This document shows positions 17,515 to 44,159 of a stretch of 64,000 nucleotides of DNA, piece after piece (the stretch's first letter is position 1; each line of letters starts with the position of its first letter). The stretch is from Sideroxydans sp. GTDB taxonomy: Bacteria; Pseudomonadota; Gammaproteobacteria; Burkholderiales; Gallionellaceae. The translations under genes and the position numbers were made by a program. The notes beneath the pieces are model-generated. The model did no database searches and was not told the DNA's origin. It saw only the letters and a program-made list of their open reading frames with translations. Location of the stretch: contig DAIDAG010000066.1 in NCBI GenBank assembly GCA_027310725.1, positions 96,828-160,827 of the forward strand, read 5' to 3'.

Positions 17515-17515
17515 A

Positions 17516-19505: not shown

Positions 19506-19537
19506 CAGGTTCCAAATCTGTAAGCAAAGGGGATGTC

Positions 19538-22500: not shown

Positions 22501-24652
22501 CGACAAATTGACGGTCGTCAACAGAAACAACGGCTACGGCGTCGTAGAACAGGTGAATGCGTACACGATTTCCGAGGACAAGAATCAACGCAAGGCGCTG
22601 TCAGAATTCATTGAGGCGATCGAAACCAAGATCGATGCGATCGAGCACATGACGATCATGCCGCTTGACCAGATTCGTGCCGCGCTACGCAAGGAAGGCT
22701 ATACCTCTGGCGAGGTGTCGGGGCGTAGCGCCATCTACCATTTCAATGAAGACGGTACCGTTCAGAAGGAAGAGCGCAAGAACGATACCGCGACTAAATT
22801 GGCGGAAATCTTCCGGTTCAACAGTGGTGAACACGACGAAGTCGTTGTTACCCGGTCGGGCTGCACCGGTATCTCAATGCACGCTTCCTCCAAATTTGCT
22901 GATCGCAGGCAGCGCAGGCTAATTGAGGCGCAAATCGCGAACAACGTGGCGGAGCGAGTGCAGTTCTTTGGGCGCGTCAACCGTCGCGGCCAGGTTTCGT
23001 CCCCCGAGATCCGGTCGGCGACCTCCGGCATGCCGTGGGAGAACAGGCTGCTTGCCATGCAGAACATGAAGATGCGCAAGCTGACGGCAAACGTGCAGTC
23101 CAATCGCAATTCGGCTGCGGAGATGAAAGGTATTCCGGACATCCTGAACGAGGTTGGCGAGCTGGTATGCAAGGAATTCCTTTCCACCAATCCGGAGATC
23201 ATGATCCGTCTTGCGATCGACCCGGACGGCAGCGAAAACTCGCAGGCCGAGTTCTATTTCGCCAACAAGCTGACCGGGCGTATGTCCCTGTTGCCATATG
23301 TCGAGCAGGTGAGGATCTACGACGAACTGACCAAGGAATACCAGCGCGTATTCGCCGATCTCACCAATAAGGGGATCAATCCTCTGGAATCGCGCTTGCT
23401 CGATGTCAAGGCGGAAGTCGTCAAGCGCTACGAGATACTGCCCGGCGTTGAGGGCGGCAGTGCGCTGGACGCCCCCGTGTTCGCCGAGAAGATCGAATGG
23501 ATTGAGAAAATCGATCCGATCCGCAGCGCGGGGGTGGTCGAGTTGGTGGGCAAGTCGATCGAGCGCCTGGTCGCCTCGGAAAAATCATTGTTCAAGTTGC
23601 ACACCGGCTCCGTCAGGCACGATTTCATGTCGCGCCGCGAGGTGAAGGGATTTTCAGTCATTGACTGTTCCGCAATCGTCAAGAAGGCAAGGCAGCTCTA
23701 CACCGAGGCGATGATCAAATCCGTACCGGAAAGATTCACCAACCCGGATAGCCCGATGGATGGGGTAGCGGCGGCGCTGGCCGACAAGGACATGAACGCG
23801 GTGAAGCGCGTCAACAGCCGCATGACGTGGTTCAGTGCTCATGTCGAGCATTTGATGCCCGGGGATGTCATCGAGGTGACGGTAGATGATGAGAAGACCC
23901 GCGCCGTGATCACCCATCTGCTGCCGCCGGAAGAAGGCAAGGAACACCATCTTGGGCAGTGGGAGATCCGCGTCCTTCCGGTGGGTGCACAGTATCCGGT
24001 CATCATGTCCTACAACTCTCTGATTGAGGACGAGAACTATGCGCCTCTGAGGGATTCCCACAAGGCCGTGGTGCGCGAGTTCGACGCGGCGCCAGCCGGC
24101 GAACTGACTTTCTCCAAGTGGACTTTGACAGGAAACTTGTTCCGCGCTTCCGAGATGGCCGCAACGAGCCACGTTGGCCGCGCGGGCATCTACACCACAA
24201 AGGACGGCGCGCGCCATCGCGCCATCCTTTGCCGTGCCCGCGTCGATCTGGACTCCCTGATGACGATGGAAGTAGCGCTTTCGTCCGCCGATGCCCTTGA
24301 GTTCATCGAGACATTGATCGCCGACGAGCGGGAAGGCTCAGTCAGCCTGGCGAATGACATCAAGTTGTCCTGGCGCGGCCACGGAGCGCAAATGACGATC
24401 TCGACCCCGGGCACAAAAATGGGCGGCGGGCAGGTCTTCCTGAACGAGAAGCTGCTGAAGTTCACCGGCGAGTTCAGCGGATCTCGGAAGGTGATGACGG
24501 CAACGTTCGAGCGTCCCCGTCGCATGACGAACTTCATTGAAGCCATCTATGACACGGGCTGCACCTTCAAGATGAAGGTCGAGAACGTGAAGCGTGCCGC
24601 AGACGACTCCAAGAGCGGGGCAGTTCAGATCAACCGAAAATTTGGGACTTAA
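19538..24652 (+). CDS. Adenine methyltransferase / Strawberry-notch-type SF2 helicase fusion (DarB-like polyvalent protein)
   Basis: QQYSTP, LEPTIGNASL, NPPFG, then ADQTGMGKGR, TYSQ, ILDESHNA, YSSATF, TGISMHAS, QFFGRVNRRGQ. Confidence 0.88.
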   Translation: MVPDKKMMQWVRLNKGNAVMLKIEMPDASFVIGVDGLRPADPEWQKLVSILNFRPSASGRLLLRAGVVVLREIREVFPNVKVDENYPVDQIFVMRSKVVNRAVIPDTQASILIGKNYLGQDVFVTATGARYIAGKDGTPVSEESISVAPAFLRAKAEGDIDLCADGFVLRMLGENLRPEDLRKFCAIIHGEDEPVEETDGRLREVQEAVEAAILRNILREFAEHGDIKRSYARASMLLGHQPTFAFRTSQSIALQQYSTPSTLSLAVQNILGDVNGLNLLEPTIGNASLVSLLRGANITGIEIDENRVRRTRKMLSETDTFGESKIAVHHADFTESDVIPDGYDVIVSNPPFGGLDKPYVKGGMKVTRIDQEIVLKSLDSRKANGKSVFIISADHDNIFKEKEGMVLDGSKNLFNWLSDHYELQAFEVSGNLYKKQGAGYPVRVLIVGRKRTQAEAEDARKTKKYRIDKLPVVKSHDELWAQSEVMKSFLAQSVPLLAENDASNKLADNTKQDVLNTPADTTSEESTIFGNEYQAQYEPMSSGETTAMIPKNLVVPQSIAFNRFIEENGDAEDFVRAELEIDDLEAVAPGAPEQIDAIALAIWNMKRGRALILADQTGMGKGRVLAAAARWSVLNNRPVIFLTEKASLFSDFWRDVRDIGSESVFTPFILNEDTDILSTDGDSKQEVLIPRTSKATRKRVIDSGGSLADEGFNLMMATYSQFNRDESSSAKARFIKDVSAGAMIILDESHNAAGDSNTGRNIAQAVQMSHAAVYSSATFSKDATNMGVYYKAFPTTVDMATLTSTLRAGGEPLQEVLSSMLCEDGVLVRREHDLSNLKFSTIPISDEILKRNIRVSDQVSDVLSMMAYLSGDIEKIAKTENKKVAEAMKNMSNEVREGKRMGVSYTNFGSRLYTISRQVALTLTMDSVINDALEGLKEGKKPVIVLEQTMESIMSSQRDLEADPLEEFALGAVAQQRLTINGLLHRVLDKLTVVNRNNGYGVVEQVNAYTISEDKNQRKALSEFIEAIETKIDAIEHMTIMPLDQIRAALRKEGYTSGEVSGRSAIYHFNEDGTVQKEERKNDTATKLAEIFRFNSGEHDEVVVTRSGCTGISMHASSKFADRRQRRLIEAQIANNVAERVQFFGRVNRRGQVSSPEIRSATSGMPWENRLLAMQNMKMRKLTANVQSNRNSAAEMKGIPDILNEVGELVCKEFLSTNPEIMIRLAIDPDGSENSQAEFYFANKLTGRMSLLPYVEQVRIYDELTKEYQRVFADLTNKGINPLESRLLDVKAEVVKRYEILPGVEGGSALDAPVFAEKIEWIEKIDPIRSAGVVELVGKSIERLVASEKSLFKLHTGSVRHDFMSRREVKGFSVIDCSAIVKKARQLYTEAMIKSVPERFTNPDSPMDGVAAALADKDMNAVKRVNSRMTWFSAHVEHLMPGDVIEVTVDDEKTRAVITHLLPPEEGKEHHLGQWEIRVLPVGAQYPVIMSYNSLIEDENYAPLRDSHKAVVREFDAAPAGELTFSKWTLTGNLFRASEMAATSHVGRAGIYTTKDGARHRAILCRARVDLDSLMTMEVALSSADALEFIETLIADEREGSVSLANDIKLSWRGHGAQMTISTPGTKMGGGQVFLNEKLLKFTGEFSGSRKVMTATFERPRRMTNFIEAIYDTGCTFKMKVENVKRAADDSKSGAVQINRKFGT

Positions 24653-24829
24653 TGAAAGGGAAATGATGAAGATCACTTTGACTGATGCCAATGGCAATAC
24701 TTCCGGGTTGCAGTGTCAATGAGGAACAGCAAGCCAAATTTCCTGCCCGACAGGATCTGATTCGTTTCATCGAGAGCACTGATAGCCCAGCCGCTTCCTC
24801 CGCGATGCGGATTTGACAAGGAGAGTCGT

Positions 24830-25388
24830 GATGGCGCAAACCGTATACACCGGCGAAAGCTATGTGATCAAAACCGAATTCAGCGGCCTGAACGTAATTA
24901 TTGAGCGCGTAGCCGATGGAAAGGATGTTCTTCTTCAGGGTGATGATGCGACTCAGTTCTTGACCGAGTATGACAACTGTCATGGTGACGACAAGCTGCT
25001 TCAGATTGTGTGCTCTGCTTATGACGAGGTGATGACTGAAAGGCGCTCTGGCGTCAATTCAGTTCTGTTGGTGCCAACGCTGGGTGAAACCATCCGGTGC
25101 ATGAAGGACGAAATTTTGTCCGATGTGCGCGCCGGTAAAGTTCCGGCTGATGTCAAATCGTTCAGCGAGCTTCACGACTATGTGGATGCCAATGAGTATG
25201 GTGGTTTTTGCAAAGAAGCATTTTCAGCCGCGTTGATCAATCACTTCGGCGGTCGCGATGAGAATGAGGGTATGCCAGATGGCATGATGAATTACACGAA
25301 CGATGCACAGAATGCCATTAACCAGTGGATCAAAGCTGGCGGAATTTCTGAGCAGCTTAAGGCGATTCCATCCGCGATGAAGATGTAA
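24830..25388 (+). CDS. Hypothetical protein
   Basis: RBS AGGAG before GTG/ATG near 24828-24833; contains SFSELHDYVDANEYGG. Confidence 0.7.
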
Positions 25389-25412
25389 AACTGAATTTCG
25401 CCGGGAGTAAAT

Positions 25413-26165
25413 ATGAGCAAAATGATCGTTGGAGCTGGTGCGTTCAAAGTGGTGAGTAATGATCGATTTGAACGGTTATTCAATTCCGCCGCAGCAACTC
25501 TTGGTGAATATCCAGGCGTATTGTCCAACAAAATTCTTTTCGGGCAGATCAAGCAAAGTGTTATTGCGAAATACGCTTTCCCGGACACAGGTAATGACCA
25601 GATCGACTTTGAGTGTTTGAGAGATGCCATCGAAGGACACATCATCAATTTTAAGGACAGTGAAGTGCTTGGACTTGATCAGGTTGGCTCTGTTATCCAG
25701 TGGAATGCCCATGAACTAGCCGCTTACATTAGCGGTGAAAAGCTTGAAGAATTCGGAATCGACAACCTCTCAGAAGTCGAGCGCATTCGGGTTGGCCTTC
25801 AGCCTTCGGTTGGCAACACGATTCCTGCTGGCGTTACCATACTGACATCTTGCGAATTCGGAGAGGTGTTCAGTGCAAATATACGGCACAAATCAGGTAA
25901 TCTGGGCAGTATGACAAAACGTAATCGTTTGGAAATTCGTAAAATCGACAAGTCTTTCCAGGTATTTTTGATCGAGCGGCGTTATGACAATTTGAAGGAA
26001 GAGGAACCAAAGGATGTTCGCCTGCAGCAAGAAGGCACATTCGAGAATATTGGTAAAGCTGCCGAGTTTGTAGGCCAGTATATTTCCGACTATCAGGGTG
26101 CAGTAATAGATGATCATGCCGAGGCTGTTGAAGTCGAGGCCTCATCAAATAAGATGAGGATGTAA
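25413..26165 (+). CDS. Hypothetical protein
   Basis: RBS GGGAG, 250 aa. Confidence 0.7.
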   Translation: MSKMIVGAGAFKVVSNDRFERLFNSAAATLGEYPGVLSNKILFGQIKQSVIAKYAFPDTGNDQIDFECLRDAIEGHIINFKDSEVLGLDQVGSVIQWNAHELAAYISGEKLEEFGIDNLSEVERIRVGLQPSVGNTIPAGVTILTSCEFGEVFSANIRHKSGNLGSMTKRNRLEIRKIDKSFQVFLIERRYDNLKEEEPKDVRLQQEGTFENIGKAAEFVGQYISDYQGAVIDDHAEAVEVEASSNKMRM

Positions 26166-26219
26166 TCCGAATAAACAAAGAGCGACCTGGTGGCGAGCTA
26201 ACAAAGGAAGGAACAACAC

Positions 26220-26675
26220 ATGAATCAACGGGATTTGATCTTGAATCACTTGTGTTCAAGGATTTTTGAACGCAATGATTTTGAAAGCGCGGAAGCATTG
26301 ATCGATGCGATCAATATGGCATCGTCTATTCCTTCCGAAACACAGTGGAGGAAGCGCAAGGATGCATTCAACCAGATAGGCGAGAAAGCCCCAATGAAGA
26401 ATGGCGGCTATTGCCTGACCTATGAGGAAGTGCCGTCATTTCTGAATACGGAAACAGACGCTTTCGTAGAGGCAATGAAAAGCGAGGCCGCATCCAAACA
26501 AATGGTGGGGGCGACAGTCAAGTCACCTGAGAGCCTGCAGCAGCCACACAGGTTTTCGAGCGTGGTTCGTAATGACACCAAAGCGCACCTCGCGGTTTTT
26601 CGTGATAGCCGTTCAGCCAGCCAGGCGGGTGATCAGGTGCGCGAACACCTTGGCATGAAGCCTAGCGCGAAGTAG
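26220..26675 (+). CDS. Hypothetical protein
   Basis: RBS AAGGA, 151 aa. Confidence 0.65.
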   Translation: MNQRDLILNHLCSRIFERNDFESAEALIDAINMASSIPSETQWRKRKDAFNQIGEKAPMKNGGYCLTYEEVPSFLNTETDAFVEAMKSEAASKQMVGATVKSPESLQQPHRFSSVVRNDTKAHLAVFRDSRSASQAGDQVREHLGMKPSAK

Positions 26676-26777
26676 GAGTGAACCATGCCGTAGGTATTGG
26701 CTAAATTGGAGCCTAATGGGCAATCTGCCCCAGGCTGTTGGTGTAGAATTCGCAGCTATTTTTGATAGGAGAACGAT

Positions 26778-26981
26778 GTGGAAGCTGGACTGAGAATCAA
26801 GATGGATAATGCAGCATTCGAGGATGATCCCGGCGAACTTGCAAGAATTCTGCGGGATCTGGCCGACAAGGTCGAGAACGGCGTCACCGATGGTGACCAG
26901 TTCGTGGCGCGAGACATCAACGGCAACAAGGTCGGATCTCTGGAGATCGTGGCCGAGCCGCGTGCCGCGCACAAGATGTAA
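26778..26981 (+). CDS. Small phage/plasmid hypothetical protein
   Basis: RBS AGGAG; DNAAF...ELARILR.LA...RDINGNKVG. Confidence 0.65.
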   Translation: MEAGLRIKMDNAAFEDDPGELARILRDLADKVENGVTDGDQFVARDINGNKVGSLEIVAEPRAAHKM

Positions 26982-27014
26982 GCGTCAAAGGCCTAATCAT
27001 TTGGGGAATTAGTT

Positions 27015-27650
27015 ATGGAAGCTAAATTAGATGCCGATCTAAATGCCGGGAATGCTTCTTTGCGCAATGCTGTTGGTGAAATTATTCATCGAATAAGCAA
27101 ATCATTGCCAGACATCAGGGAACCAATCAAGATGTACCTTGCTGGTGGCGTGGCAGTGAATTTCTATACTGGCTATCGAGCAACCGATGATGTCGATGCA
27201 TCGTTTTCGCACAAAATCATTTTGCCTAATGCCAACGAGCTGGTTGTCTCATACGATGACGAGAACGGCAAGCACAAAATGGTGTACTTCGATATGAACT
27301 ACAACCCGACTTTCGCTTTGATGCACCCTGATTTTGAGAAAGATGCTGCATTGGTCGAGGGAAATGAGTTTAAGGACGACAAAATCAAGTTGTATATCTT
27401 GTCCCCTGTTGATCTGGCGCTTAGTAAAGTTTCAAGATTAGAGGGTAACGACAGAGAAGACATAGCCGAGCTTGCAAAACGCAAATTAATTTCGTCGAAA
27501 GAACTGGAAGAACGTGCAGAGGAAGCACTTTCATATTATATTGGCAATCAAGCGATGTTGAGAGTGAACATTCAGGACGTGCTGGAGGTCATAGAGACGG
27601 TACAGCAGGGCTTGAATCATGGCATAAATGGAAAAGGATATGGGCGCTAA
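27015..27650 (+). CDS. Nucleotidyltransferase-fold protein (DUF6036/AbiEii-like)
   Basis: YLAGGVAV..Y...RATDDVD, LSPVDLALSK..R....DREDI. Confidence 0.75.
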   Translation: MEAKLDADLNAGNASLRNAVGEIIHRISKSLPDIREPIKMYLAGGVAVNFYTGYRATDDVDASFSHKIILPNANELVVSYDDENGKHKMVYFDMNYNPTFALMHPDFEKDAALVEGNEFKDDKIKLYILSPVDLALSKVSRLEGNDREDIAELAKRKLISSKELEERAEEALSYYIGNQAMLRVNIQDVLEVIETVQQGLNHGINGKGYGR

Positions 27651-27990
27651 TCCGTTTAACAAACAACAATTCAATGCCTACCGGGATTGGGAGCAATCCT
27701 TGGTGGAGTTTTTTGTGCGCGAAGCAAAAAAGCCGAACATGGTGAATTGGTTATCAATGGTCAATGGCGCGGACTCGCCGAGGTCAGTAGCGTATTCGGC
27801 CTTGCTTTTATCTAACCTTGTTAGCAGCAAGCCGAACTATACGGAATCTGCCAAGGCGTTATATTCCGTCTATGAGAGGCTTACTGAGCAAAGAGGCAAC
27901 GCCTCCGAATTTGAAGAATGGCTGCACTCTGATTGGCTGAACGTATCGCGAGTGGCAAATATGTTCAAGGCCGAATTGATGCACCACTAA
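27628..27990 (+). CDS. Hypothetical protein overlapping the NTase gene (possible partner)
   Basis: Overlapping ORF with the same AT-richer composition. Confidence 0.6.
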   Translation: MEKDMGANPFNKQQFNAYRDWEQSLVEFFVREAKKPNMVNWLSMVNGADSPRSVAYSALLLSNLVSSKPNYTESAKALYSVYERLTEQRGNASEFEEWLHSDWLNVSRVANMFKAELMHH

Positions 27991-28203: not shown

Positions 28204-29721
28204 ATGAGACTGTTTGTTGCAGAAAAACCTGATGTAGCAAGAGAGCTTGCAGCGTTTATCGGCAAGCGCAATAAGGCATCCCCCAAAAAAGAGGCTCGGT
28301 ACATTGAAGTAGGAGACACAATCGTAACCTGGGCGCGCGGGCATCTGCTTGAACAGGGAGAGGTCGATGACTACTTCCTCGACGTTCCCAGGACGAAAGA
28401 AAATTCCAGCCGTGGCCGTCTCTACTGGCAGCACGTGCCGTTACCCATTCTCCCCAAAAAGTTCTTGTACGTCCCCTCAAAAGAGGATTCCGACCGCTCC
28501 GCGCAACTCAAGGAAATCGGCAGGCTGATGAAGTCGGCCACTGATATCTTCAACGCCGCCGACCGTGACCGGGAAGGGCAACTGATCTTCGACGAGATCA
28601 TTGAGCATTTCGGAATTTCAGGAAAACCGATCAAGCGGCTGATCTTCTCGTCATTGGACGATGCGGCGCTGGAACGCGCGTTCAACAGCGCGGTAGATAA
28701 CAAAACGCCCGGCATCTTCAACATGGGTCTTGCGGCAAAGACGCGTGGGCAGGCCGACTGGCTAATTGGCATGAACGGCACCCGCGCCATGACGCTGGCA
28801 CACGTAACGCCGGCCAAGGGCGCCGGCTCCCTGAATGTTGGCCGCGCGATGACGCCGACGATGTCGGTTGTAGTGCGCCGTCACCTAGAGATTCTGAATT
28901 TCAAATCCTCCGCCTTTTACGTGCCAATGGTGGAGCTGCCCGATGGCACTGTTCTGGAGTGGAAAAAGCGCCTGGACGAAAGCGACACCAAAGGGCTGGA
29001 CGCCAACGGCAAGATCATCGATCGTGCGCTGGCCGAGCGTATCGTCAAGGCGATCAACGACGGTCTGGAAGGGGAAATTACCGAGGCCAAGTCCACCGAA
29101 AGGCGGGAGGAGCCACCGCTGCCGTTCTCCCTGCCGTCAATACAGTCCGAACTGTCCAAGAAATACGGGCTGACCGTAGAAGAGATCACGGAGGCGTGTC
29201 AGTCGCTCTACCAGAAGAAAATGCAAACCTATGTCGGTACCGATTGTCCATACTTGCCGGAGGCGATGCATGGAGAGGCATCGGATGTGCTGAACGGGCT
29301 AAAGGCGATGTTCGGCAAGGCCGTGAGCGGCACGAACGTAACGCGCAAGTATGGCTGCTGGAATGACAAAAAGCTGTCCGGCGAAGGCGGTGCCGCCCAC
29401 CACGGGATCATTCCGACCGGAATTAAGGGGTCAATCAGCTCGGAAGCAGAGCGGCTTGTGTACCAAGCCGTGTGCAACCGCTATATCGCTCAGTTCTATC
29501 CAGAACACCGTTACCTGGCGATTTCGCTCAAGGCAGCGTTTGGCGGTGCAACCGGTGACGAGTTCAACGCAACCGCCAAGGCGGTAATCTCAAACGGCTG
29601 GAAAGACGTGGAGGGAGAAGGCGATACGAACGAGGATCGAACCACAGACAATGATCGCACGGCGCCGGACAGCAAAGCTGGCGCGCAAAAACCGTCCGAT
29701 ATGGGCGGACGCAAAGGATGA
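28204..29721 (+). CDS. topB: DNA topoisomerase III, N-terminal part (TOPRIM plus catalytic Tyr region)
   Basis: AEKP, TWARGHL, AADRDREG, ADWLIGMNGTRA, VGRAMTPT, PPLPFSL, AQ-equivalent CQSLYQKK..TYVGTD, AHHGIIPT; ends before the GT..TR motif. Confidence 0.88.
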   Translation: MRLFVAEKPDVARELAAFIGKRNKASPKKEARYIEVGDTIVTWARGHLLEQGEVDDYFLDVPRTKENSSRGRLYWQHVPLPILPKKFLYVPSKEDSDRSAQLKEIGRLMKSATDIFNAADRDREGQLIFDEIIEHFGISGKPIKRLIFSSLDDAALERAFNSAVDNKTPGIFNMGLAAKTRGQADWLIGMNGTRAMTLAHVTPAKGAGSLNVGRAMTPTMSVVVRRHLEILNFKSSAFYVPMVELPDGTVLEWKKRLDESDTKGLDANGKIIDRALAERIVKAINDGLEGEITEAKSTERREEPPLPFSLPSIQSELSKKYGLTVEEITEACQSLYQKKMQTYVGTDCPYLPEAMHGEASDVLNGLKAMFGKAVSGTNVTRKYGCWNDKKLSGEGGAAHHGIIPTGIKGSISSEAERLVYQAVCNRYIAQFYPEHRYLAISLKAAFGGATGDEFNATAKAVISNGWKDVEGEGDTNEDRTTDNDRTAPDSKAGAQKPSDMGGRKG

Positions 29722-31187: not shown

Positions 31188-31925
31188 ATGGCAAATGCAC
31201 TCGACATCAGCAAGTTCGAAGTGGGAAGCGCGGTGCGCGGGCGAGCCTACGTGCGCGAAGGGAAGACGGTTCCTCCGCGCTACTTTGTCGAGGGTGACCT
31301 GATCCTGATCATGGATGACATCGGGCGCTACGCGAACATTGGTAAGGAGGATGCGGCAATCCTGCGCGAGAAGAACAGCACGGGCAGCGGCAAAGCCGGG
31401 ATCGGCACGGCCAGAACGCGCGGCGAGGTCATCAAGAAGTTGTTCGATGACGGGTTCTTGTACAAGGAAAAGGCCAAGGGCAAGAAATCGCCGATCGTGA
31501 TGCCTAGCGAGAAGAGCATCGCCCTCTACGAAAAGTTGTCGCAATGCGGCACTGCCAAGGTGCTGATTTCACCGGAGATGACGGCGAAGTGGGAAACCGG
31601 ACTGACGATGATCGAGCGCGGGGAGATCACGCCAGCTCAGTTCATGGATCAACTGTATAAGTTCATCATGCAGTTGACGACGGACATGACAGCCAATCCA
31701 ACCAACCCGTATTTCGGCAAGCCGCGCGCAGCCGCCGGCGACGGTACGGTCAAATCCAATTGCGACGAAAAGCATCCGAAGGACGGTCAGTTGTGCGACA
31801 AGTGCAAGGACGGTCAGTTGCTCACAATGAAGGTGGTCAAAAAGGAAAGCTCCGCGTTCGGCAAGCTGTACGTGAAGTGCGATAACAAGAAGTGCGATTA
31901 CTTTGGAGAGTTCATCAAACTATGA
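31188..31925 (+). CDS. topB: DNA topoisomerase III, C-terminal part with zinc ribbon
   Basis: KTVPPRYFVEGDL, GIGTARTRGEVIKKL, SPEMTAKWE..L..IE.G, CDKC...CDNKKCDY. Confidence 0.85.
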   Translation: MANALDISKFEVGSAVRGRAYVREGKTVPPRYFVEGDLILIMDDIGRYANIGKEDAAILREKNSTGSGKAGIGTARTRGEVIKKLFDDGFLYKEKAKGKKSPIVMPSEKSIALYEKLSQCGTAKVLISPEMTAKWETGLTMIERGEITPAQFMDQLYKFIMQLTTDMTANPTNPYFGKPRAAAGDGTVKSNCDEKHPKDGQLCDKCKDGQLLTMKVVKKESSAFGKLYVKCDNKKCDYFGEFIKL

Positions 31926-32389
31926 GCCAAAATGCGCAAAACGGTCAGGGCGACAACTCAGCGAACAGCGCAGTAGCTGTTGCCGAGAAGTGCATGTTCA
32001 GACCAACGATTGAAGAAATCATGGCTGAAATTTTTGCAAAATACAATTTTGCATTAGACAGCAATCCTATTTTGCCATCGGAGGTCTTTGCGGCTGATTC
32101 TTTCCTGCCGTTGTTTTCGTCTATTGCGATCAGCCGTGCTGAAAGCATCTTCGGTTTCCCGTTCTATATCGAGGAAATCGAAGACGAAAATGCACTGTTC
32201 GGCATGACGATTGCCCCCGAGTTTCCGTCCGCTGCGCCATTCCTGATCTACACGCTGCAGATGATGAATGTGGCGACGGATATTTTCGGGAGGGTTCCCT
32301 GCAAGATCGAGCTGGATGAGCTGTATGCATGGGCGACCAGCCGCGAATTGCAAGAGGCCGGGCTTCCATATTTGGGTATCAAACACTGA
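31922..32389 (+). CDS. IcmS-like type IVB adaptor/chaperone
   Basis: F.L....I...EVF....FLP, G......E.ENALFG and C-terminal LDELY align by eye with Legionella IcmS as I recall it (FYLN...DEVFSETGLLP...EGALLG...LDELMY). Confidence 0.6.
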   Translation: MSQNAQNGQGDNSANSAVAVAEKCMFRPTIEEIMAEIFAKYNFALDSNPILPSEVFAADSFLPLFSSIAISRAESIFGFPFYIEEIEDENALFGMTIAPEFPSAAPFLIYTLQMMNVATDIFGRVPCKIELDELYAWATSRELQEAGLPYLGIKH

Positions 32390-32401: not shown

Positions 32402-32953
32402 ATGATCAACTATGCGAAAGAAACTTTTGACGATGAATCGACAAGCAATAAGGCGGTATCGATTCGCGAATTGATGAACGGGGTCATGGCTACTGAAGAC
32501 GCGATGGAACAGCGGGAAGAGACACCCGCACCTCACGCGAAATACGTGCCGTATCTCAAGCCTGCGAAGAAGCGCACTGCTACGCCCGTCGAGCAGACCA
32601 CAGATGCCCCGTTGCCTGTCGCAAATGATCTGGTTTCGCAAGCGAAGGCGCGCTTGTCCGCGCTTGTTCAGCGCCGGGACCAGGCTACCGGCGACACCGT
32701 TTACTTGGAGCGCGATTCCGAGCGCGCTGTACTGCGTGACACGGGTTCGAAGATCTGCGTTACCGAGGACAAACCCTCTGACGAAGATATTCTGCTGATG
32801 CTGGTTGCCGCGCAGGAAAAGTTTGGCGACAAGTTCAAGGTGTTCGGTACTGACGAATTTGTCGAGCGTTGTTCGCGCATCGCATTGATGCATGATATAA
32901 AAATGCAGAATACGCAGCGCGAAACAACGTCCCGCAGCCCGAAGGTTTCCTGA
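32402..32953 (+). CDS. LPD7-like domain protein
   Basis: LRDTGSKI.V...DEDI...L..AQEKFG....V.GT.EF. Confidence 0.65.
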   Translation: MINYAKETFDDESTSNKAVSIRELMNGVMATEDAMEQREETPAPHAKYVPYLKPAKKRTATPVEQTTDAPLPVANDLVSQAKARLSALVQRRDQATGDTVYLERDSERAVLRDTGSKICVTEDKPSDEDILLMLVAAQEKFGDKFKVFGTDEFVERCSRIALMHDIKMQNTQRETTSRSPKVS

Positions 32954-32961: not shown

Positions 32962-33942
32962 GTGATCATGGCAGAGCACGCAAAACTGGTGCCACCGACA
33001 GCACCTCAAGCGGTGGTGATCAACGACCACCGACGGGTCATGTCGGCTCTCAAGGCATCTTCTCCGATCATCCAGGCAATGATCGTTGCCCCGGGAAGCA
33101 ATGCGGATGCCGGAATGCGTGCGGCGGCTATTTCGGACATGGTCAAGGCCTCTCACGTTGCCGCCGAATGCATGATCGATACGCTCGCGCCGGACTTGAA
33201 AGGCAAGGGATGGGCCAGATCCGATGCGTTTCTGTTCTGCGCCGGCGTCATCGCCGAAGAATGGAAGGCAACGAAGAATATCGGCCTGGCTACTTCTATC
33301 ATTGACGAAGAGCTGCTGGGGCAAATGCAGGCATCCGTCCTCGGATCCGATTCCAAGGCGCTGAACTGGATGGACAGAGTAAACGAATATCCGCCCATCA
33401 TTGATCATTGCGATGCGGCAACCAGGTTGCGCATGAGCCTGATGAAGGCGTCTACCCCGATGGTCATGGAGATCAACCGTTTTGCCTTCTGGCAAAACGC
33501 GGAGAAGCGCACCCAGTTCATCGAGAGCATGGTCAGCAATATCAGCGAACTGGCCGCGAGTCACGCCAACGAGATGGCCGACAAGTTTGCCATGAGTCCC
33601 GAGGATCGGATCAGCTTATGGCAAGGCGACTTGCAGCGCGTTTTTGTGTTCGCGATAGAAGAGTACCGTTGCGTCGCGCAGATCGCGACCAGCAATGTCG
33701 AGGCAATTGCCAAAGATACGATCGACGAAAGTCTGGTCAGGAACGAGCAGGTCACCTGGTTCAGAAAAGCTGCGTCGGGCGAGATCCAACGCGACATCCT
33801 GAGCAAAGTCACCTCCAATTTCGCCATTCTGGATGGTGTCGCCAATCGCCTCGCCATGACGATGGCTGGCGCCCAGAACCGCAATTCGGCCAGTGCCGAA
33901 GCCCGTTCAATCGAGAATCAGGAGGTATCGCATCATGCGTAA
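32962..33942 (+). CDS. Hypothetical helical protein
   Basis: RBS AGGAG, 326 aa, in the transfer operon. Confidence 0.7.
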   Translation: MIMAEHAKLVPPTAPQAVVINDHRRVMSALKASSPIIQAMIVAPGSNADAGMRAAAISDMVKASHVAAECMIDTLAPDLKGKGWARSDAFLFCAGVIAEEWKATKNIGLATSIIDEELLGQMQASVLGSDSKALNWMDRVNEYPPIIDHCDAATRLRMSLMKASTPMVMEINRFAFWQNAEKRTQFIESMVSNISELAASHANEMADKFAMSPEDRISLWQGDLQRVFVFAIEEYRCVAQIATSNVEAIAKDTIDESLVRNEQVTWFRKAASGEIQRDILSKVTSNFAILDGVANRLAMTMAGAQNRNSASAEARSIENQEVSHHA

Positions 33943-34516
33943 ATTGAAATCGTTTTTGCTGGTAGTGGTGGCCGTTACTGCCGCAGCATTCCCTCCCTGT
34001 GCTGCGGCAGGTTTTTTGGTCAAAACCGGTCAGGCGCTGGTCGATCTCGGATCGCCGGATGCCGGCAAACCTGCGACCGCGACGGCGCCAGTTCCAACCG
34101 CCAAAGCTGCACCAAATTGCGATCCGGTCAAGGAAGCTCAGACCAAGAAAGATGCTGATCAATCCGAAGTACAAAACGGCCTCACGAACCACGTAAATTT
34201 GTCATGCTTGGAAAAGTACAAAAAATTCAGCATGGGTACTTCGCTGGGTTATCCGAACCCGTGGGATCTGTTGCAGCAGATGATCGGGCAGGTGTGTTCT
34301 GCAGCCGACATGAAGGTGCAAGGCGCGACCGCACCCCTGAATCAGGGTTTGCCGCTCCCGGGCGGTGTCGGGCGCGTGAACACCGGAGCTGTGTTCGGTA
34401 GCAGCGCGCCATCGGGAGCGGGCGTTTCAGTAGGAAGTGGTGGAACTAGCACTTCGACTACTGGCGCGGTAAATCAAGGTGGGACGGGCTACACCGTTCC
34501 GCCACTTTGGAAATGA
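33935..34516 (+). CDS. Exported Cys-containing transfer-region protein
   Basis: RBS GGAGG, ATG 33935, signal peptide MRKLKSFLLVVVAVTAAAF, Gly/Ser-rich tail. Confidence 0.65.
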   Translation: MRKLKSFLLVVVAVTAAAFPPCAAAGFLVKTGQALVDLGSPDAGKPATATAPVPTAKAAPNCDPVKEAQTKKDADQSEVQNGLTNHVNLSCLEKYKKFSMGTSLGYPNPWDLLQQMIGQVCSAADMKVQGATAPLNQGLPLPGGVGRVNTGAVFGSSAPSGAGVSVGSGGTSTSTTGAVNQGGTGYTVPPLWK

Positions 34517-34532
34517 TCAGGGGAACCGAGAC

Positions 34533-35819
34533 ATGAAAAATCGCATTGTTGTTGCACTGATCGCGCTGATCTACTCGTCCGCTTCGTCGGCTGCGCTCGT
34601 CGGGACGTGTTCCGGCGTCAATATCGGTATCGACGGGACGATGACCACTCCGGACTTCTACCAGAGCGTGACGCAGCCGGTAACGAGCGCGATCAGCTCG
34701 TTGTCGACCAGTTTGACCAGCAGCATCCAGACCAACCTGAACCAGACTGTCAGGGATCTATCGAAAGTCATCGAGGCGACTGGCAAGGCGCAGATGGCGC
34801 ACATCGAAAAGATTCACGAAGCCGATCGGACGAATACGCTCGAAGTCGAAAAACAAAAGGTGATCACGCAGAAGTCGATGGATGGCGCTTATCTGCCGGC
34901 GGGCAATACCTGTGCTGACCGGGCAGCGGCGGCGACCGCGAGTGCGTCGGACGGGACGGTTGCATATCAGGCGAAACGCTATGGCGCTGCTATGCGGTAC
35001 CGAGCGGCTAAGGCGCCTGATACACGCGAACAGCTCAATGACGCCGTCGAGAATCACAGGATCTACTACTGCGATCCAGCAACCGACCCATTGCGATGCA
35101 ACGGTCACGCCCCGGCCAAGACTTTTAGCAAGAACGGGAAGCAGATCACGATGCCGGACGCCGATAGTTCCGCTAAAACATTGTTCGACGGCGCCGGCAA
35201 TGGTGAGCACATCTCGAACCTGACATACGTCCCGGAACAAATGGATGCGGCGGGCGCGTATATCAACAGCGCTCTTGCCGTTGGGGACACGCCTCGTGCG
35301 TTGTCGCCGGCTGAGGCCAAGACGGACGAAGGGCAGGTTTATCAAGGGTTGAAGCTGGCCTACGAGTCGCGTATCAGCCTGTCTCGCGAGGTGTTGCTTC
35401 AGATTCAAGGATCGCGTGCCCCGATCGAAGGCTCCGACCAGTTGCTGCAGGGCATGGTCGATAGTACGAGTGCCGATTACGGCATGAAGGATTACGTCCA
35501 GGGGCGGGTTAAAGAGATCCAGAAATTTCAGGCATTCAACAGTAGCCCGAAGGTTTCGCCTATGGAGCTGCTGGATATTCAGGTCAAAAGTCGCTCGGAC
35601 AACCCCGGCTGGCTGGCCTATATCAACAATGCAGAGCGAGACCAGGTCGTTAAAGAGCAGACGGTCATGATGTCGTTGCAGTTGCGCATGCAGTACATGC
35701 AACTGCGTCAGCAGGAAATGACTTCTGCCTTGCTTGCGATCAATTCCGCAGAGACAACCAAGGCCAATTTGCTGCCGAAGATCAATATCACGATGAGCAA
35801 TTTGACGCGTCATCAATAA
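34533..35819 (+). CDS. TraW/IcmX-like periplasmic transfer protein
   Basis: Signal peptide, YYC...C, C-terminal S..ELL..QV..R..NPGW...LRQQE..ALLA; synteny upstream of dotA/traY. Confidence 0.6.
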   Translation: MKNRIVVALIALIYSSASSAALVGTCSGVNIGIDGTMTTPDFYQSVTQPVTSAISSLSTSLTSSIQTNLNQTVRDLSKVIEATGKAQMAHIEKIHEADRTNTLEVEKQKVITQKSMDGAYLPAGNTCADRAAAATASASDGTVAYQAKRYGAAMRYRAAKAPDTREQLNDAVENHRIYYCDPATDPLRCNGHAPAKTFSKNGKQITMPDADSSAKTLFDGAGNGEHISNLTYVPEQMDAAGAYINSALAVGDTPRALSPAEAKTDEGQVYQGLKLAYESRISLSREVLLQIQGSRAPIEGSDQLLQGMVDSTSADYGMKDYVQGRVKEIQKFQAFNSSPKVSPMELLDIQVKSRSDNPGWLAYINNAERDQVVKEQTVMMSLQLRMQYMQLRQQEMTSALLAINSAETTKANLLPKINITMSNLTRHQ

Positions 35820-36320: not shown

Positions 36321-38453
36321 ATGGCCGCTGCAACACCTACGCTAACGACTGACGGTCTCGTCGGCGCAGCAAACCAGGCGTCAGGGATGGCGCCCATCGG
36401 GGGCGGTGAAGGCGGCGTTTCCGCGCAGATGATGCTGAAGATGATCTTCGGCGATGTCGCGCAGAATCCACTTGCCGCGCTGACTTCGCTTAATGCTGGT
36501 AATACCGCGCTGTCGGTTATCTTCATGTACATCAACATCGGCTTACTGACGCTGGGATCAATCTACCTAACCTACAAGACGTTGGCCGCTGTCACCCAGA
36601 CTGCGCACGACGGCGACTTCATCGGCAAAGCGTTCCATACGGTCTGGGTGCCGATCCGCGTTACGACCGGTATTCTGACCCTTGTCCCGATTGCGGGCGG
36701 CTGGAACGCCCTGCAAGTCATCATGTTGTGGATCGGCGTCATGGGTGCCGGTCTCGGCAATTTGGGCTGGCAGGCTGTAGTGAATGGCTGGTTGGGGGAA
36801 GGCGGCAAGATGCAACGCACCAACGTTGCGGCCACGATTCGGTTCGGAAACGGCAACATGGTGGCGAGTAAGGCGTTCGAGGCCTTGCTGTGCGATGAAG
36901 CATATATCAGGACATCCGGCGGCAGTCCAAACTCGACAAGCGCGCTTGTTTTCAATGGTGGGGGAAGAGATTGCGGCGAGATCAAGATCGCCGACACCAA
37001 TCAGGTTGCTGGCGCTGCCGTGTCCAGCAATAGTCTTGCGCTGAGCGCGCGCGCCGTTGCCAAGTCCGCTGCTGAGGACATGGTTCGCGAAATGCGTATT
37101 GTCGCTCAGAACGCCATCACGGACGTTGAGACGAATCTGCGCGCTGCGCAGGATCCTAATGCTCCGCTTGATACACCTCTTCCCGATTTCAGGAAGTATT
37201 TGGCTCAAGTGAGGCAGATTGGTACTGTTTACCAGATCAAACTCAACGAGGGCGTGTATCGGGTGCTGAACAGCGCCGCGAAAGCCGACGGTACATCAGG
37301 TATTGTCGAAAAAGCCGCCAAGGATTACGGCTTCGTCTCTGCCGGATCGTTCTATACGGCCTACGCCAATTCATCTTATTCCATCAAGTCGGTTGAGGAT
37401 GCATCCGGTGTAACGGATGTGAGGGTTAATGCGAGTGGGCACACAAATTCCCTCTACACTGCAACGATGAATTACTACTCGGCAGCGCAGAACAAAACCG
37501 CTGTCAGTAGTGCGTCGGTAAATGAATCCGATTCCGAGCAGGGCGCATTCGCTCTTCTCAAAGATCACATGGGATTTGGTGGAGATCGTTTGGTCAGTTC
37601 ATTTATACGCCATGACCTGGACACGCCGGCGCTCGTCAATATCAAGAACACTGCCGACGATGTCGTGATGTTTGCAGGAGTCGGGGTTACTGCCGTCGGA
37701 GCAATCATGGGCATGAAAGACAGCTTGTTGGGCAAGCTGGCTGACAACGCGACCGGCGGCATTATAGGCGGTGCGATGACCCCCTGGCTGGAAATGGCGA
37801 AATTCGTCATGCAAATGTCCCTTGGTTTCTTTCTGATGTGCGCCATCTATATGCCGCTTGTCCCCTACATCGTTTTCATGGGACAGGTGATGGAGTGGCT
37901 GTCGTCAGTCATGCTGGGCGTCGCTTCAGCACCGTTTTTGGCCTTCGCCCACTTCGACACAGACGGTGAAGGACTTGGGCAACGCACAACGTATGGCTAT
38001 TCGTTTATGTTGCAAAGTTTTATGCGCCCCATTATGCTGATCTTGGGCTTTATCTTTGCGTCGGCGATGATAGAAGTTTCTATCTATTTCTTGACCGCGA
38101 CGTACAGTTTTGCTGTGCATGATGCTCAAGTGCATAGCGTGACCGGTCTGTTCAGCATCTTCGGCTATATCGCGCTATACATGGTGTTGGCTGTCGGGCT
38201 GGTTAATACCAGTTGCAGTTTGATTTATCTCTTGCCTGACGCGATATTTGAGTTCATGGGAGCGAAAGCAGTGGGATTAGGATTCGCTAACAATACCTCG
38301 CACGATGCGATGAACAAGGCTCTGGCTGGTGCCGGTGTCTCACGCACCATCGGTGGCATGCCATCCGGCGGTGGGGGCGGGAAGTCCAAGTCGATCGCAG
38401 GTGGTGTGCAAGGTGTTGAGAACAAGGTGTCTGGCGGTGCTGAAAAAGGTTGA
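36321..38453 (+). CDS. dotA: DotA/TraY integral membrane protein
   Basis: TAHDG..IG......WVPIR, multiple transmembrane segments, Y.P..PY..F, AP....AH..GEG.G, RP.ML.LGF. Confidence 0.88.
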   Translation: MAAATPTLTTDGLVGAANQASGMAPIGGGEGGVSAQMMLKMIFGDVAQNPLAALTSLNAGNTALSVIFMYINIGLLTLGSIYLTYKTLAAVTQTAHDGDFIGKAFHTVWVPIRVTTGILTLVPIAGGWNALQVIMLWIGVMGAGLGNLGWQAVVNGWLGEGGKMQRTNVAATIRFGNGNMVASKAFEALLCDEAYIRTSGGSPNSTSALVFNGGGRDCGEIKIADTNQVAGAAVSSNSLALSARAVAKSAAEDMVREMRIVAQNAITDVETNLRAAQDPNAPLDTPLPDFRKYLAQVRQIGTVYQIKLNEGVYRVLNSAAKADGTSGIVEKAAKDYGFVSAGSFYTAYANSSYSIKSVEDASGVTDVRVNASGHTNSLYTATMNYYSAAQNKTAVSSASVNESDSEQGAFALLKDHMGFGGDRLVSSFIRHDLDTPALVNIKNTADDVVMFAGVGVTAVGAIMGMKDSLLGKLADNATGGIIGGAMTPWLEMAKFVMQMSLGFFLMCAIYMPLVPYIVFMGQVMEWLSSVMLGVASAPFLAFAHFDTDGEGLGQRTTYGYSFMLQSFMRPIMLILGFIFASAMIEVSIYFLTATYSFAVHDAQVHSVTGLFSIFGYIALYMVLAVGLVNTSCSLIYLLPDAIFEFMGAKAVGLGFANNTSHDAMNKALAGAGVSRTIGGMPSGGGGGKSKSIAGGVQGVENKVSGGAEKG

Positions 38454-40188: not shown

Positions 40189-43100
40189 ATGAGGTTTCTG
40201 AAAAATGCCGGTACTGAGCGTACCCTCGATCTAATCAAGCCCCTTTTACTGAACGGCAGTAGCATGGACATAGCGACCTCGTCATTGTCTCTATTCGCCT
40301 TCGCCGAGCTACTCAGCGAGCTGTCCTCGATACAAAATACCCGCCTCCTGCTTCCCAGCGAAGAACACGACCTGAAGTTGTTTGGTACAGAACATGACCG
40401 CGCCGCGCGGAATCGCCTTCAAGTGCGCTGGCTGGCACTGCGGCTCGCACAGTGGTTACAAGGTAAATCCGAGTTGCGGCGAGTAAGTGGCGCTGTTCCA
40501 CAGGGCGCGGCAGTGCTGCGCAACGCAGATGCCGCACCCCAGCTTGGCATCATGGGTTCATTCTCTTTCAGTACCGATGGGTTGGGCATTACACCTGGTA
40601 ACCCGCTCAATCTTATTCAGTCATCGGAAACCGAAGAAGAGAGCCGGCGGCTCAATGACTGGTTCGATGTCCAATGGAACACCCTAAAGGAACAACCTGA
40701 GGCGAAGGCTGCTTTACTCGCAAAACTCAAGTCAATCACTGACCACCGCGATCCTTACAGCATTTACGTGCTGATGCTGCATCATCTATTCCAGACCAAC
40801 AGCGACGAGATGGACGAAGATCGCATCGTCAAGTCAGCCACTGGAATACGAAATACACTGGTCTGGAAGAAGCTCTACAAGTTCCAGCGTGACGGTGTAG
40901 TGGGGGCGATAGACAAACTCAATCGATTCGGCGGCTGCATCATCGCCGATAGCGTAGGCTTGGGCAAAACCTTCGAGGCGTTGGCCATCATCAAATACCA
41001 TGAACTACGCAACGACCGAGTGCTGGTGTTATGCCCAAAACGGCTGCGCGAAAACTGGACGCTCTACAAGACTAACGACAAGCGCAATGTGCTGGCCGCC
41101 GACCGACTTAATTACGACGTATTGAATCACACCGATCTTTCCCGTGACGCGGGGAGTTCCGGCGACATCGACCTGTCTCACGTTAACTGGGGTAACTACG
41201 ACCTGGTTGTGATTGATGAATCCCACAATTTCCGCAACAAGGCCACGCACAAAGACAAAGAATCGCGCTACGACCGCCTGATGCGCCGCATTATCAAGGA
41301 AGGCGTAAAGACCCGCGTGCTCATGTTGTCGGCCACACCAGTCAATAACCGGCTCGCCGACCTGAAGAATCAGATCGCATTCGTCACCGAAGGCGATGAC
41401 GCGGCGCTGTCCGATCATGGCATAGATAGCATTGATAGCACGACCCGCTTGGCTCAGAAGCAGTTCAACCGCTGGTTGGAAATGGATGAGGCGGAGAAAA
41501 CACCGGCGAAATTGATCGAGATGCTCGGCTTCGATTATTTCACCTTACTGGATCATCTCACCATCGCACGCTCGCGCAGGCACATCGAAAAATACTATGG
41601 CATCACCGAAACAGGCCGCTTCCCGGATCGTCTGCCGCCTATCAACATCAAGGCGGACGTGGATAGAGCAGGGGAATTCCGCTCCATTCGCGACATCAAC
41701 ATGGAAATCCGCCGCCTGAACCTGGCCAGCTACGCACCATTGCGCTACGTACTACCGCACAAGCAGGCGGCATACGATGCCAAATACAGCACGCAGATTC
41801 GTGGCGGCGAGAGCTTCTTCCGCCAGGTTGACCGCGAAGAAAGTTTGATTCACCTGCTACGCGTCAACGTGCTCAAGCGCATGGAAAGCGCGGTCTCTTC
41901 GTTCCGGCTCACGGTTCAGCGGCAACTGAAAGATGTCGAAGCAGTGCTGGAACGCATCGAGTCCCAAACCGGGGAACTCGAAGAGCTGGACATCACCGAC
42001 GTGGACATCGAAGACCCAACCTTCGAGAGCTTGCTGGTGGGCAGAAAAGTGAAAGTCTTGCTGGGGGATGTTGACCTCATCCGCTGGAAGCAAGACCTCA
42101 TTGAAGACCGCAACCGCCTTGCTACGCTGTTAGCCGCAGCCATGCAGGTTGATCCAGATCGGGATGCCAAGCTGCATGAGTTGCGCGAGATGATAAAGAA
42201 CAAGTGCCACAATCCCATCAATGACGGCAACCGAAAGATGATCGTCTTCACAGCGTTCAGCGATACGGCGCAATATCTTTACGAACAAATTGCCGGTTGG
42301 GCAAAGAAGGAACTTGGCATCGAGGCGGCGTTGGTTACGGGCTCAGGCCGCAATCAAACCACCATTCCAGGTATGCGCAAAGACCTGGCTACCATCCTCA
42401 CAGCCTTCTCGCCGCGCTCCAAAGAGCGCCCGGAAGAGCTGGCTCACGAGGGCACGCTGGACTTGCTGATCGCAACCGACTGCATCTCCGAAGGTCAAAA
42501 CCTTCAGGATTGCGACTGGCTCATCAACTATGACATTCACTGGAACCCGGTGCGCATCATTCAACGCTTTGGCCGGATAGACCGTATTGGTTCACCCAAC
42601 CAGCGCATCCAGCTTGTTAACTTCTGGCCCAACATGGAGCTGGAGGAATACATCAACCTCGAACAACGCGTCAGCGGGCGCATGGTTCTGCTGGACATTT
42701 CCGCTACCGGCGAAGAAAACCTCATCGAGCAGCAATCCGGCAACCAGATGAACGATCTGGAATACCGTCGTAAGCAACTGCTCAAACTGCAAGACACTGT
42801 GATTGATCTGGAAGACCTCTCAACTGGCGTTTCCATTACCGACCTCACGCTCACCGATTTTCGCATCGACCTTGCCCAGTATTTCAAGGCGCATCCGGGT
42901 AAGCTGGAAAACATGCCGCTGGGCGCGTGCGCCGTAACCACCAGCGAGGATGCCGACATTCCACCGGGAATCGTGTTCTGCCTGCGTGCCGAAGGTGCGG
43001 CTGCAGGGAAGATCGCTGATTCTGGCTACCCACTCGCACCACATTACCTCGTGCATGTTGGCGAAGATGGCAGCGTCCTGTTGCCCTACACTCAAGCAAA

Positions 43101-43383
43101 GCTCATTCTGGACCGGCTAAAACGTCTGAGCTTGGGGCGAGACCTGCCTGACGCTAGCGCCTGTGCTCGGCACGATAAAGAAACCAAGCAAGGCGAAGTC
43201 ATGCACCACGCCCAGCAACTGCTTGCAGCAGCTGTCGCCTCGGTTGTGGGCAAGAGCGAAGAGCGCGCAGTCGCCAGTTTGTTTTCTCCGGGTGGAACGC
43301 ATGCCATGAAGGGCGAGTTTGCCGGGAGTAATGACTTTGAAGTGGTGGCATTCCTGGTGGTGCTGCCGGAGGCGAGGGCATGA
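40189..43383 (+). CDS. SNF2-family helicase with degenerate N-terminal PLD-like domain
   Basis: ADSVGLGKT, VIDESHNFRN, LSATPVNN, TDCISEGQNLQ, NYDIHWNPVRIIQRFGRIDRIG. Confidence 0.9.
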   Translation: MRFLKNAGTERTLDLIKPLLLNGSSMDIATSSLSLFAFAELLSELSSIQNTRLLLPSEEHDLKLFGTEHDRAARNRLQVRWLALRLAQWLQGKSELRRVSGAVPQGAAVLRNADAAPQLGIMGSFSFSTDGLGITPGNPLNLIQSSETEEESRRLNDWFDVQWNTLKEQPEAKAALLAKLKSITDHRDPYSIYVLMLHHLFQTNSDEMDEDRIVKSATGIRNTLVWKKLYKFQRDGVVGAIDKLNRFGGCIIADSVGLGKTFEALAIIKYHELRNDRVLVLCPKRLRENWTLYKTNDKRNVLAADRLNYDVLNHTDLSRDAGSSGDIDLSHVNWGNYDLVVIDESHNFRNKATHKDKESRYDRLMRRIIKEGVKTRVLMLSATPVNNRLADLKNQIAFVTEGDDAALSDHGIDSIDSTTRLAQKQFNRWLEMDEAEKTPAKLIEMLGFDYFTLLDHLTIARSRRHIEKYYGITETGRFPDRLPPINIKADVDRAGEFRSIRDINMEIRRLNLASYAPLRYVLPHKQAAYDAKYSTQIRGGESFFRQVDREESLIHLLRVNVLKRMESAVSSFRLTVQRQLKDVEAVLERIESQTGELEELDITDVDIEDPTFESLLVGRKVKVLLGDVDLIRWKQDLIEDRNRLATLLAAAMQVDPDRDAKLHELREMIKNKCHNPINDGNRKMIVFTAFSDTAQYLYEQIAGWAKKELGIEAALVTGSGRNQTTIPGMRKDLATILTAFSPRSKERPEELAHEGTLDLLIATDCISEGQNLQDCDWLINYDIHWNPVRIIQRFGRIDRIGSPNQRIQLVNFWPNMELEEYINLEQRVSGRMVLLDISATGEENLIEQQSGNQMNDLEYRRKQLLKLQDTVIDLEDLSTGVSITDLTLTDFRIDLAQYFKAHPGKLENMPLGACAVTTSEDADIPPGIVFCLRAEGAAAGKIADSGYPLAPHYLVHVGEDGSVLLPYTQAKLILDRLKRLSLGRDLPDASACARHDKETKQGEVMHHAQQLLAAAVASVVGKSEERAVASLFSPGGTHAMKGEFAGSNDFEVVAFLVVLPEARA

Positions 43384-44141: not shown

Positions 44142-44159
44142 CCAGAAGGACTGAGAAAA

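Follow-up and report, generated by a model that had tools for sequence, protein, structure and literature searches.

A diverged IcmS homologue, recognised by profile and predicted fold, in a Dot/Icm-like transfer region integrated in a Sideroxydans sp. contig

IcmS and IcmW are known from intracellular pathogens, where they serve as adaptors for effectors. In Legionella, the IcmSW pair binds residues 671-753 of DotL, and plasmid mobilisation is described as independent of IcmS (PMC3441705, in excerpt); the pair is required for a subset of effectors (PMC3441705; PMC9302130; PMC7251119), and IcmS is a small and acidic protein (PMC9302130). Excerpts of a further source describe a Yersinia pVM82 system without icmS and icmW and a bacterium-killing type IVB secretion system (T4BSS) of P. 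putida with icmW (PMC13664640). For IncM conjugation, represented by pCTX-M3, the remaining components of the coupling complex are said still to await characterisation (PMC6112013, in excerpt). Here we report an icmS-like gene in an MPF-I/Dot-Icm-like region that is integrated in a chromosomal contig of Sideroxydans sp. (GenBank assembly GCA_027310725.1, contig DAIDAG010000066.1, hereafter C36). The window, i.e. the whole stretch of DNA that was analysed, comprises 64,000 nucleotides (C36:96828-160827); coordinates preceded by C36 are contig positions and all others are window positions. The genome is 65% complete, and the element is contained on one contig.

The icmS-like gene is located on the forward strand and extends from ATG 31922, which shares bases with the stop codon of the preceding topoisomerase gene, to TGA 32389, giving a product of 155 amino acids. 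The mechanical open reading frame begins at GTG 31892, and the start was placed near 31922 from homologues of 151-163 aa. In a comparison of 135 codons with the orthologue of genome G046, 64 were identical, 45 differed synonymously and 26 non-synonymously; the base differences were distributed over the codon positions as 16/10/60, i.e. 60 of 86 fell on third positions. The differences are thus mostly synonymous and in third positions, and the open reading frame is therefore a real, conserved gene under purifying selection. The product is acidic (pI 4.2; 21 D+E versus 8 K+R) and its model is compact and of the soluble type; size and charge are as for IcmS, and the location is predicted to be cytoplasmic.

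Scans with Pfam and NCBIfam assigned the protein to no family, and the IcmS model PF12608.13 matched neither this protein at its curated cut-off nor any other in the genome. A single-sequence phmmer search of the PDB ranked IcmS first, weakly (E 0.27); with a profile of four sequences the value was E 0.0027, and with five sequences of close relatives IcmS was the sole match (E 1.1e-5). An AlphaFold2 model (pLDDT 80.7), built from a 14-row alignment that held no canonical IcmS, showed the IcmS fold at residues 27-138, preceded by an additional N-terminal helix and followed by a conserved C-terminal extension. Comparison of this model with IcmS structures by Foldseek, a check proposed in an earlier note on this DNA, returned a match (E 3.3e-7, TM 0.83 by target, rmsd 2.4 A). 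VIA gave Z 14.7 and rmsd 2.3 A over 109 aligned residues spanning all 114 of IcmS, the runner-up among 48,161 chains reaching Z 4.8; identity to Legionella IcmS in the structural alignment is 25%. The motifs that the earlier note had named by eye were all present and align with IcmS: EVF..xxLP at residues 54-63, E.ALFG (for E.AL(F/L)G) at 89-94 and LDEL at 131-134, the last corresponding to the LDELMYD-type end of canonical IcmS. The end-to-end alignment claimed in the same note holds for the whole of IcmS but not for the query, which has about 26 surplus N-terminal and 17 surplus C-terminal residues.

The relationship was also recovered in the reverse direction. The 14-row query alignment retrieved canonical IcmS, with matches in 67 of the 399 other genomes of the class that were scored: all 29 of the 67 proteins that were examined have 112-140 aa and an LDELMYD-like C-terminal motif, the three that were tested against PF12608 all passed, and IcmW was above its cut-off in each of 30 canonical-IcmS genomes tested. 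With an HMM of 29 canonical IcmS, the query was the top match among 19,511 ORFs of the genome (E 5e-5; runner-up 0.85), a check that is not fully independent, as those 29 sequences had been found with an alignment including the query. Judged by profile comparison and modelled fold, the proposal of an IcmS-like ORF at 31922-32389 is confirmed, and the gene is predicted to encode a diverged IcmS homologue whose signal, at 23 bits, is barely detectable.

Legionella pneumophila IcmS (PF12608; PDB 5X1E, 5XNB, 5X90) and the predicted protein share the fold, the F-x-L, EVF, LP, G and LDEL motifs and a small, acidic character, and here DotL, DotM and DotN are encoded on the same contig. In contrast to Legionella IcmS, the protein falls below the PF12608.13 threshold, carries the additional N-terminal helix and the 17-residue C-terminal extension, and is encoded outside the canonical icmT-icmS neighbourhood, without a clear IcmW, together with a DotL whose tail has no detectable similarity to the canonical one, and on a mobile element instead of a chromosomal virulence locus.

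A search of 1.84 billion representatives yielded 29 proteins at E up to 0.001, most of which have in common a short helix at the N-terminus and, at the C-terminus, an extension that is absent from canonical IcmS and terminates in a GxP motif; P149 in this extension is nearly invariant, and the model has a confident helix at 141-146. Two of the 29 are fused to unrelated domains: in P0028 (673 aa) the IcmS-like domain is fused N-terminally to an AAA ATPase, and in P0039 (873 aa), a singleton that may be an artefact, C-terminally to TIR-NACHT. The gene is rare; it was found in two of 317 genomes of the family, the present one counted, and in a profile search in none of 400 other genomes of the order. 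The genome collection contributed one named relative, from a Gallionella MAG (74% identity). A tblastn search of plasmids with the query matched nothing, and the ESM Atlas returned no useful match (best 0.87). Precomputed PF12608.15 matches exist for eight more distant proteins of a type found in Cupriavidus, but not for the close group of the query. In a tree of 35 rows, the ten chromosomal IcmS clustered together (98/96) on a long branch, with the Cupriavidus-type proteins as their nearest neighbours (92/88, not starred); the tree is unrooted, contains two plasmid rows with very long branches and gives no order of descent.

The transfer region is Dot/Icm-like and IncI-like and spans about 64 to 137 kb of C36. 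Upstream of the window lie DotL/TrbC (C36:66015-68537, 840 residues, of which 5-620 align with Legionella DotL at E 4.5e-99), which the earlier note had suggested seeking in the rest of the replicon, and DotM (C36:69738-70970; PF23127, E 5e-32), in the gene order SLT-dotM-trbB-dotL. Other genes upstream of the window encode TrbB, a lytic transglycosylase, DotB/C/D, DotI/H/G/F, a TraQ-like protein and type IVB pilus proteins (PilN/PilS/PilV-like). One PilV-like pilin (C36:74763-76421, reverse strand) carries a C-terminal Gp38 domain of phage tail-fibre adhesins (PF05268, E 6e-12). Within the window follow, on the forward strand, a DotN/IcmJ-like subunit of the coupling complex (2038-2688; NF038221 at E 1.5e-13, under the curated cut-off; Cupriavidus plasmid orthologue E 1e-29), a VirB4-family ATPase that is likely TraU/DotO (6207-9248; TIGR00929 E 1.1e-6; Cupriavidus plasmid orthologue E 1e-180), and a cargo region in which family scans found a methylase, helicases, nucleotidyltransferases and many ORFs of no assigned family (9321-27990). 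A phage-like module (antirepressor, DUF1376 protein, DnaC-like loader) occupies window 1-1624 plus C36:95120-97669, between the traQ-like genes and dotN. Directly after dotN, a 389-aa ORF of no family (2685-3854) has a counterpart in the same place on a Cupriavidus plasmid (E 3e-43). Immediately 3' of the icmS-like gene and on the same strand is an LPD7-domain protein (32402-32953; PF18821 E 6.6e-12), followed, likewise on the forward strand, by a 326-aa protein without family match that is kept in G046 (32962-33942; 66% identity), an ORF placed as traV by position only, i.e. upstream of traW as in R64, and matching no family (33893-34516), a TraW-like protein (34479-35819; NF033888 E 1.9e-20, under cut-off) and DotA/TraY (36321-38453; TIGR04346 E 8e-73, over cut-off). 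Further downstream, window 40189-59169 holds a defence-like island with an SNF2 helicase, DUF4391, a type III RM methylase and endonuclease, a PLD protein, an Mre11/Rad50-like pair and an OLD-like ATPase with UvrD helicase; an adenylate/guanylate cyclase fused to hemerythrin is encoded at 61563-62936 on the reverse strand. DotL was found in the present genome only among the 317 of the family, and the G046 contig ends inside the element.

A phage-integrase gene lies at C36:42618-43643, neither a tRNA nor a clear att repeat was found on C36, and some ORFs at the left end of the contig look, judged by eye, like cobalamin-synthesis genes. No MOB family was found among the element ORFs scanned, and a weak NF041893 match falls on the LPD7 protein. 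Because no relaxase family was found, the conjugative nature of the region is inferred from gene content only; where the earlier note had called it a conjugative element, the MPF-I core and pil genes agree with that term, and conjugation itself is not established. The machine might instead be a protein injector, used for bacterial killing or directed at eukaryotes, in which IcmS serves effectors as in Legionella. This is consistent with the missing relaxase families, with the typing of the Cupriavidus plasmid and of P. putida plasmid pND6-2 as non-mobilizable by MOB-suite, and with the killing T4BSS of P. putida, but pND6-2 is reported second-hand to be conjugative despite that typing (PMC6133989, in excerpt, citing Li 2013), effector-like families were not seen in the scans, and the IncI-like type IVB pili, TrbB, LPD1/LPD7 proteins, helicases, methylase and topoisomerase III are mobile-element cargo; a relaxase could moreover be present in unrecognised form. 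We consider an injector unlikely. A tyrosine-recombinase-like gene is found directly upstream of dotI (C36:88822-89772), and on the Cupriavidus plasmid its counterpart (E 5e-28) lies two genes upstream of dotI, divergent from an stbB-family operon. No known relaxase is present on the element or on that plasmid, and the recombinase-like gene may be an unrecognised one.

The gene immediately upstream of the icmS-like gene encodes part of a topoisomerase III that is split in two (28204-29721, N-terminal part, PF01751 and PF01131 positions 5-303; 31188-31925, C-terminal part, PF01131 positions 298-411; both on the forward strand), with three ORFs in between. The split is the same in G046, and on the Cupriavidus plasmid the halves are about 41 kb apart; its recurrence in both suggests a functional two-chain enzyme. 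The stop/start overlap with the C-terminal topB gene and the same gene order in G046, along with the fusions of P0028 and P0039 to other domains, would suit an IcmS fold recruited for a non-secretion job, for example as partner of the translationally coupled topoisomerase. On the Cupriavidus plasmid, pND6-2 and Acidovorax pACP3.1, however, the gene adjoins genes of the traW region or dotM/dotL and not topB, and a DotL-type system accompanies it in every context examined except G046, where the contig ends; a role outside secretion thus appears very improbable.

The closest DotL in PLSDB (38%) is that of Cupriavidus oxalaticus X32 plasmid unnamed2 (NZ_CP038637.1). Two genes upstream of its traV/traW position, this plasmid encodes an IcmS-like protein of 136 aa that is annotated as 'hypothetical' (WP_135707202.1; 21.6 bits against the query profile, profile-profile probability 95.5, and E 2.8e-6 to IcmS in the PDB), and three Cupriavidus plasmids carry this gene. 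The plasmid resembles the present element in the split topB, the recombinase-like gene upstream of dotI, the lack of an IcmW HMM match and the presence of a candidate partner gene upstream of SLT-dotM; it differs in being a free plasmid with an IcmS-like protein that is only about 25% identical, lies nearer to canonical IcmS in the tree and, unlike the query group, belongs to a cluster that already has a precomputed PF12608.15 match.

A canonical-only IcmS HMM (790 ORFs) matched unannotated genes on P. putida pND6-2 (E 1.6e-5) and Acidovorax pACP3.1 (E 2.3e-9), two to three genes upstream of dotM-dotL, and both plasmids also have IcmW above the Pfam cut-off. The unannotated IcmS-like and IcmW genes are located at 17798-18223 and 4666-5163 of pND6-2 and at L108:11860-12372 and L107:11956-12465 of pACP3.1, and the case is less isolated than the earlier note implied. 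These plasmids, too, are MPF-I/T4BSS plasmids with an unannotated IcmS-like gene, but their icmS lies near dotM/dotL and their icmW before a traV-like gene, whereas the present element shows the reverse, with the icmS-like gene close to traV/traW and the IcmW candidate close to dotM. All three plasmids on which an IcmS-like gene was examined have a DotL-type system. An IcmW query found full-length homologues on plasmids of Pseudomonas, Acidovorax and Piscirickettsia (of 68 matched records, 39 had a query coverage of 80% or more). Nine plasmids were searched whole for IcmS-like proteins: the Cupriavidus plasmid, pND6-2 and pACP3.1 matched by construction, as they or their cluster are in the query alignment, and none was found on R64, pLMG930.1, pD2RT, pPALA50, pPME5 and a Piscirickettsia plasmid. 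IcmW is present on pPALA50, pPME5 and the Piscirickettsia plasmid, all without an IcmS-like match; the pair is thus not always detectable together. The present element has counterparts of TrbABC, TraH-J, TraM-Q, TraU, TraW, TraY and the type IVB pil genes of R64, an IncI1 plasmid that differs in its MOBP relaxase. The view that IcmS is not among the classical IncI1 tra proteins agrees with the negative search for an IcmS-like gene on R64, and an unfiltered search of 50 of its 121 kb revealed neither an IcmS-like nor an IcmW-like protein.

The present element yielded no match to PF23130 (IcmW) and two custom IcmW HMMs, nor did the rest of the genome or the Cupriavidus plasmid; NF038223 was rejected as an IcmW model because it represents IcmN. 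Compared by hhalign with canonical IcmW, none of 89 element ORFs matched as single sequences. Among 48 ORFs of the Cupriavidus plasmid, the best value (E 0.0016) belonged to an unrelated 171-aa ORF. A 158-aa ORF between traW and dotA, an IcmW candidate by position, gave no useful match in the ESM Atlas. Since IcmS itself is barely detectable, a diverged IcmW could be missed. The search of the rest of the replicon that the earlier note had suggested produced one weak candidate, a 165-aa ORF (C36:72041-72538) upstream of SLT-dotM-trbB-dotL, recognised by eye. A weakly similar 135-aa ORF occupies the same place upstream of SLT-dotM on the Cupriavidus plasmid; by eye, the two share an IcmW-like spacing of Pro, Arg and Phe-Ser, and their families align by profile-profile comparison over 123 columns (E 0.0027). 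Over 110 columns, the merged family aligned with an IcmW profile to which five plasmid sequences had been added (E 5e-4, hhalign probability 31-36%); the score was 29.6-29.9, whereas 100 column shuffles reached at most 18.8 and reversal gave 16.2. The candidate had been selected by eye among about 90 ORFs and succeeded only with this second IcmW profile, and the E-value is borderline after correction. Canonical-only IcmW profiles did not match it. Its predicted model is all-helical and mediocre (pLDDT 73.6, pTM 0.54), and IcmW is absent from the Foldseek, VIA wide and VIA second-look listings obtained with that model (best Z 5.7); the profile of its family matched only DotF in the PDB (E 0.46). 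Co-folding of residues 12-155 of the IcmS-like protein with residues 1-145 of the candidate gave scores of 0.30 and 0.27 versus a mark of 0.32, without controls, and is counted neither for nor against the pair. On these sequence comparisons, the chances that the 165-aa ORF encodes an IcmW-like partner are roughly even.

An IcmS-like adaptor of the coupling complex might also function without IcmW, its N-terminal helix and C-terminal extension covering the surface otherwise covered by IcmW. The lack of an IcmW HMM match on both the element and the Cupriavidus plasmid would fit, as would the GxP extension of most representatives with its nearly invariant P149 and confident helix, but all 30 canonical genomes tested contain both IcmS and IcmW, as do pND6-2 and pACP3.1, a weak IcmW candidate is present in syntenic position, and an IcmW as diverged as this IcmS could escape detection. 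We regard an IcmW-free adaptor as rather unlikely.

The DotL of the element extends about 220 residues past the region aligned to Legionella DotL. Compared with the IcmSW-binding tails of 13 canonical DotL, obtained from 18 regions, this tail showed no similarity that could be detected, and its one match on plasmids was by chance. Of the IcmS-IcmW recruitment module postulated in the earlier note, the IcmS identity and the presence of DotL, DotM and DotN stand; IcmW is represented by a weak candidate only, and the DotL tail has no detectable resemblance to the canonical ones. General family scans of the element named neither LvgA nor DotY or DotZ. Possible cargo is suggested by the C-termini of the ORFs at 9321-33942, between traU and the traV position: in nine of 26, the final six positions include Met and Lys/Arg and are free of acidic residues, compared with 56 of 1,308 background ORFs; the pattern was defined post hoc, after the tails had been seen, and the background consists of mechanical ORFs of at least 200 aa. 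The final eight residues carry on average a net charge of +1.15 in the element ORFs and +0.36 in the background (p 6e-4). Basic, Met-containing tails are therefore a suggestive mark of candidate cargo substrates, and nothing ties them directly to the IcmS-like protein.

By analogy with Legionella, the IcmS-like protein would be an adaptor in the cytoplasm that sits on the C-terminal tail of DotL, the coupling ATPase of the element, would probably pair with a diverged IcmW-like protein, for which the 165-aa ORF is a weakly supported candidate, and would recruit the element's own protein cargo, possibly including the ORFs with basic tails, for delivery to recipient bacteria; the analogy also points to the transfer of proteins, and not of DNA, as its task. 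The distance of about 57 kb between the icmS-like gene and dotM/dotL and its coupling to a topoisomerase fragment count against this reading. In our judgement, the probability of such a coupling-complex adaptor, likely with an IcmW-like partner, is evenly balanced. A protein that merely stabilises or assembles the DotL tail, with no cargo recruitment, has a slim chance: segments of the Legionella DotL tail are described as unfolded and unstable when DotN or IcmSW is missing, and VpdB is given as an example of effectors that bind LvgA and not IcmSW (PMC9302130, in excerpt), and general family scans of the element named no LvgA-like gene; against this, IcmSW binds some effectors directly (SidF, SdeA; PMC7251119, PMC9302130, in excerpt), and a cohort of element ORFs has similar basic tails.

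Beyond the adaptor reading itself, we tentatively propose, with more doubt than confidence, that the IcmS-IcmW pair may belong, so far unrecognised, to a lineage of conjugative MPF-I plasmids and integrated elements, in which it would route the element's own proteins into recipient bacteria, and that the effector adaptor of Legionellales may descend from it, a very diverged pair having been kept here (31922-32389 and C36:72041-72538). The titles and abstract openings covered contained no report of IcmS on a conjugative element, and excerpts of PMC10432156 and PMC11338181 held nothing further on the subject. Priority for an IcmS of plasmids or mobile elements is nevertheless uncertain, because precomputed PF12608.15 matches already mark the eight Cupriavidus-type proteins and distribution tables of type IVB surveys may already list plasmid icmS.

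The surprise is tempered, as some plasmid members are already recognised by the newer Pfam model and IcmW has already been reported outside Legionellales. IcmS-fold genes on plasmids and integrated elements of environmental bacteria, one of them reportedly conjugative, offer a tractable system for the role of the adaptor before or outside the infection of eukaryotes, and they hint at a dedicated path for protein cargo in some conjugative elements.
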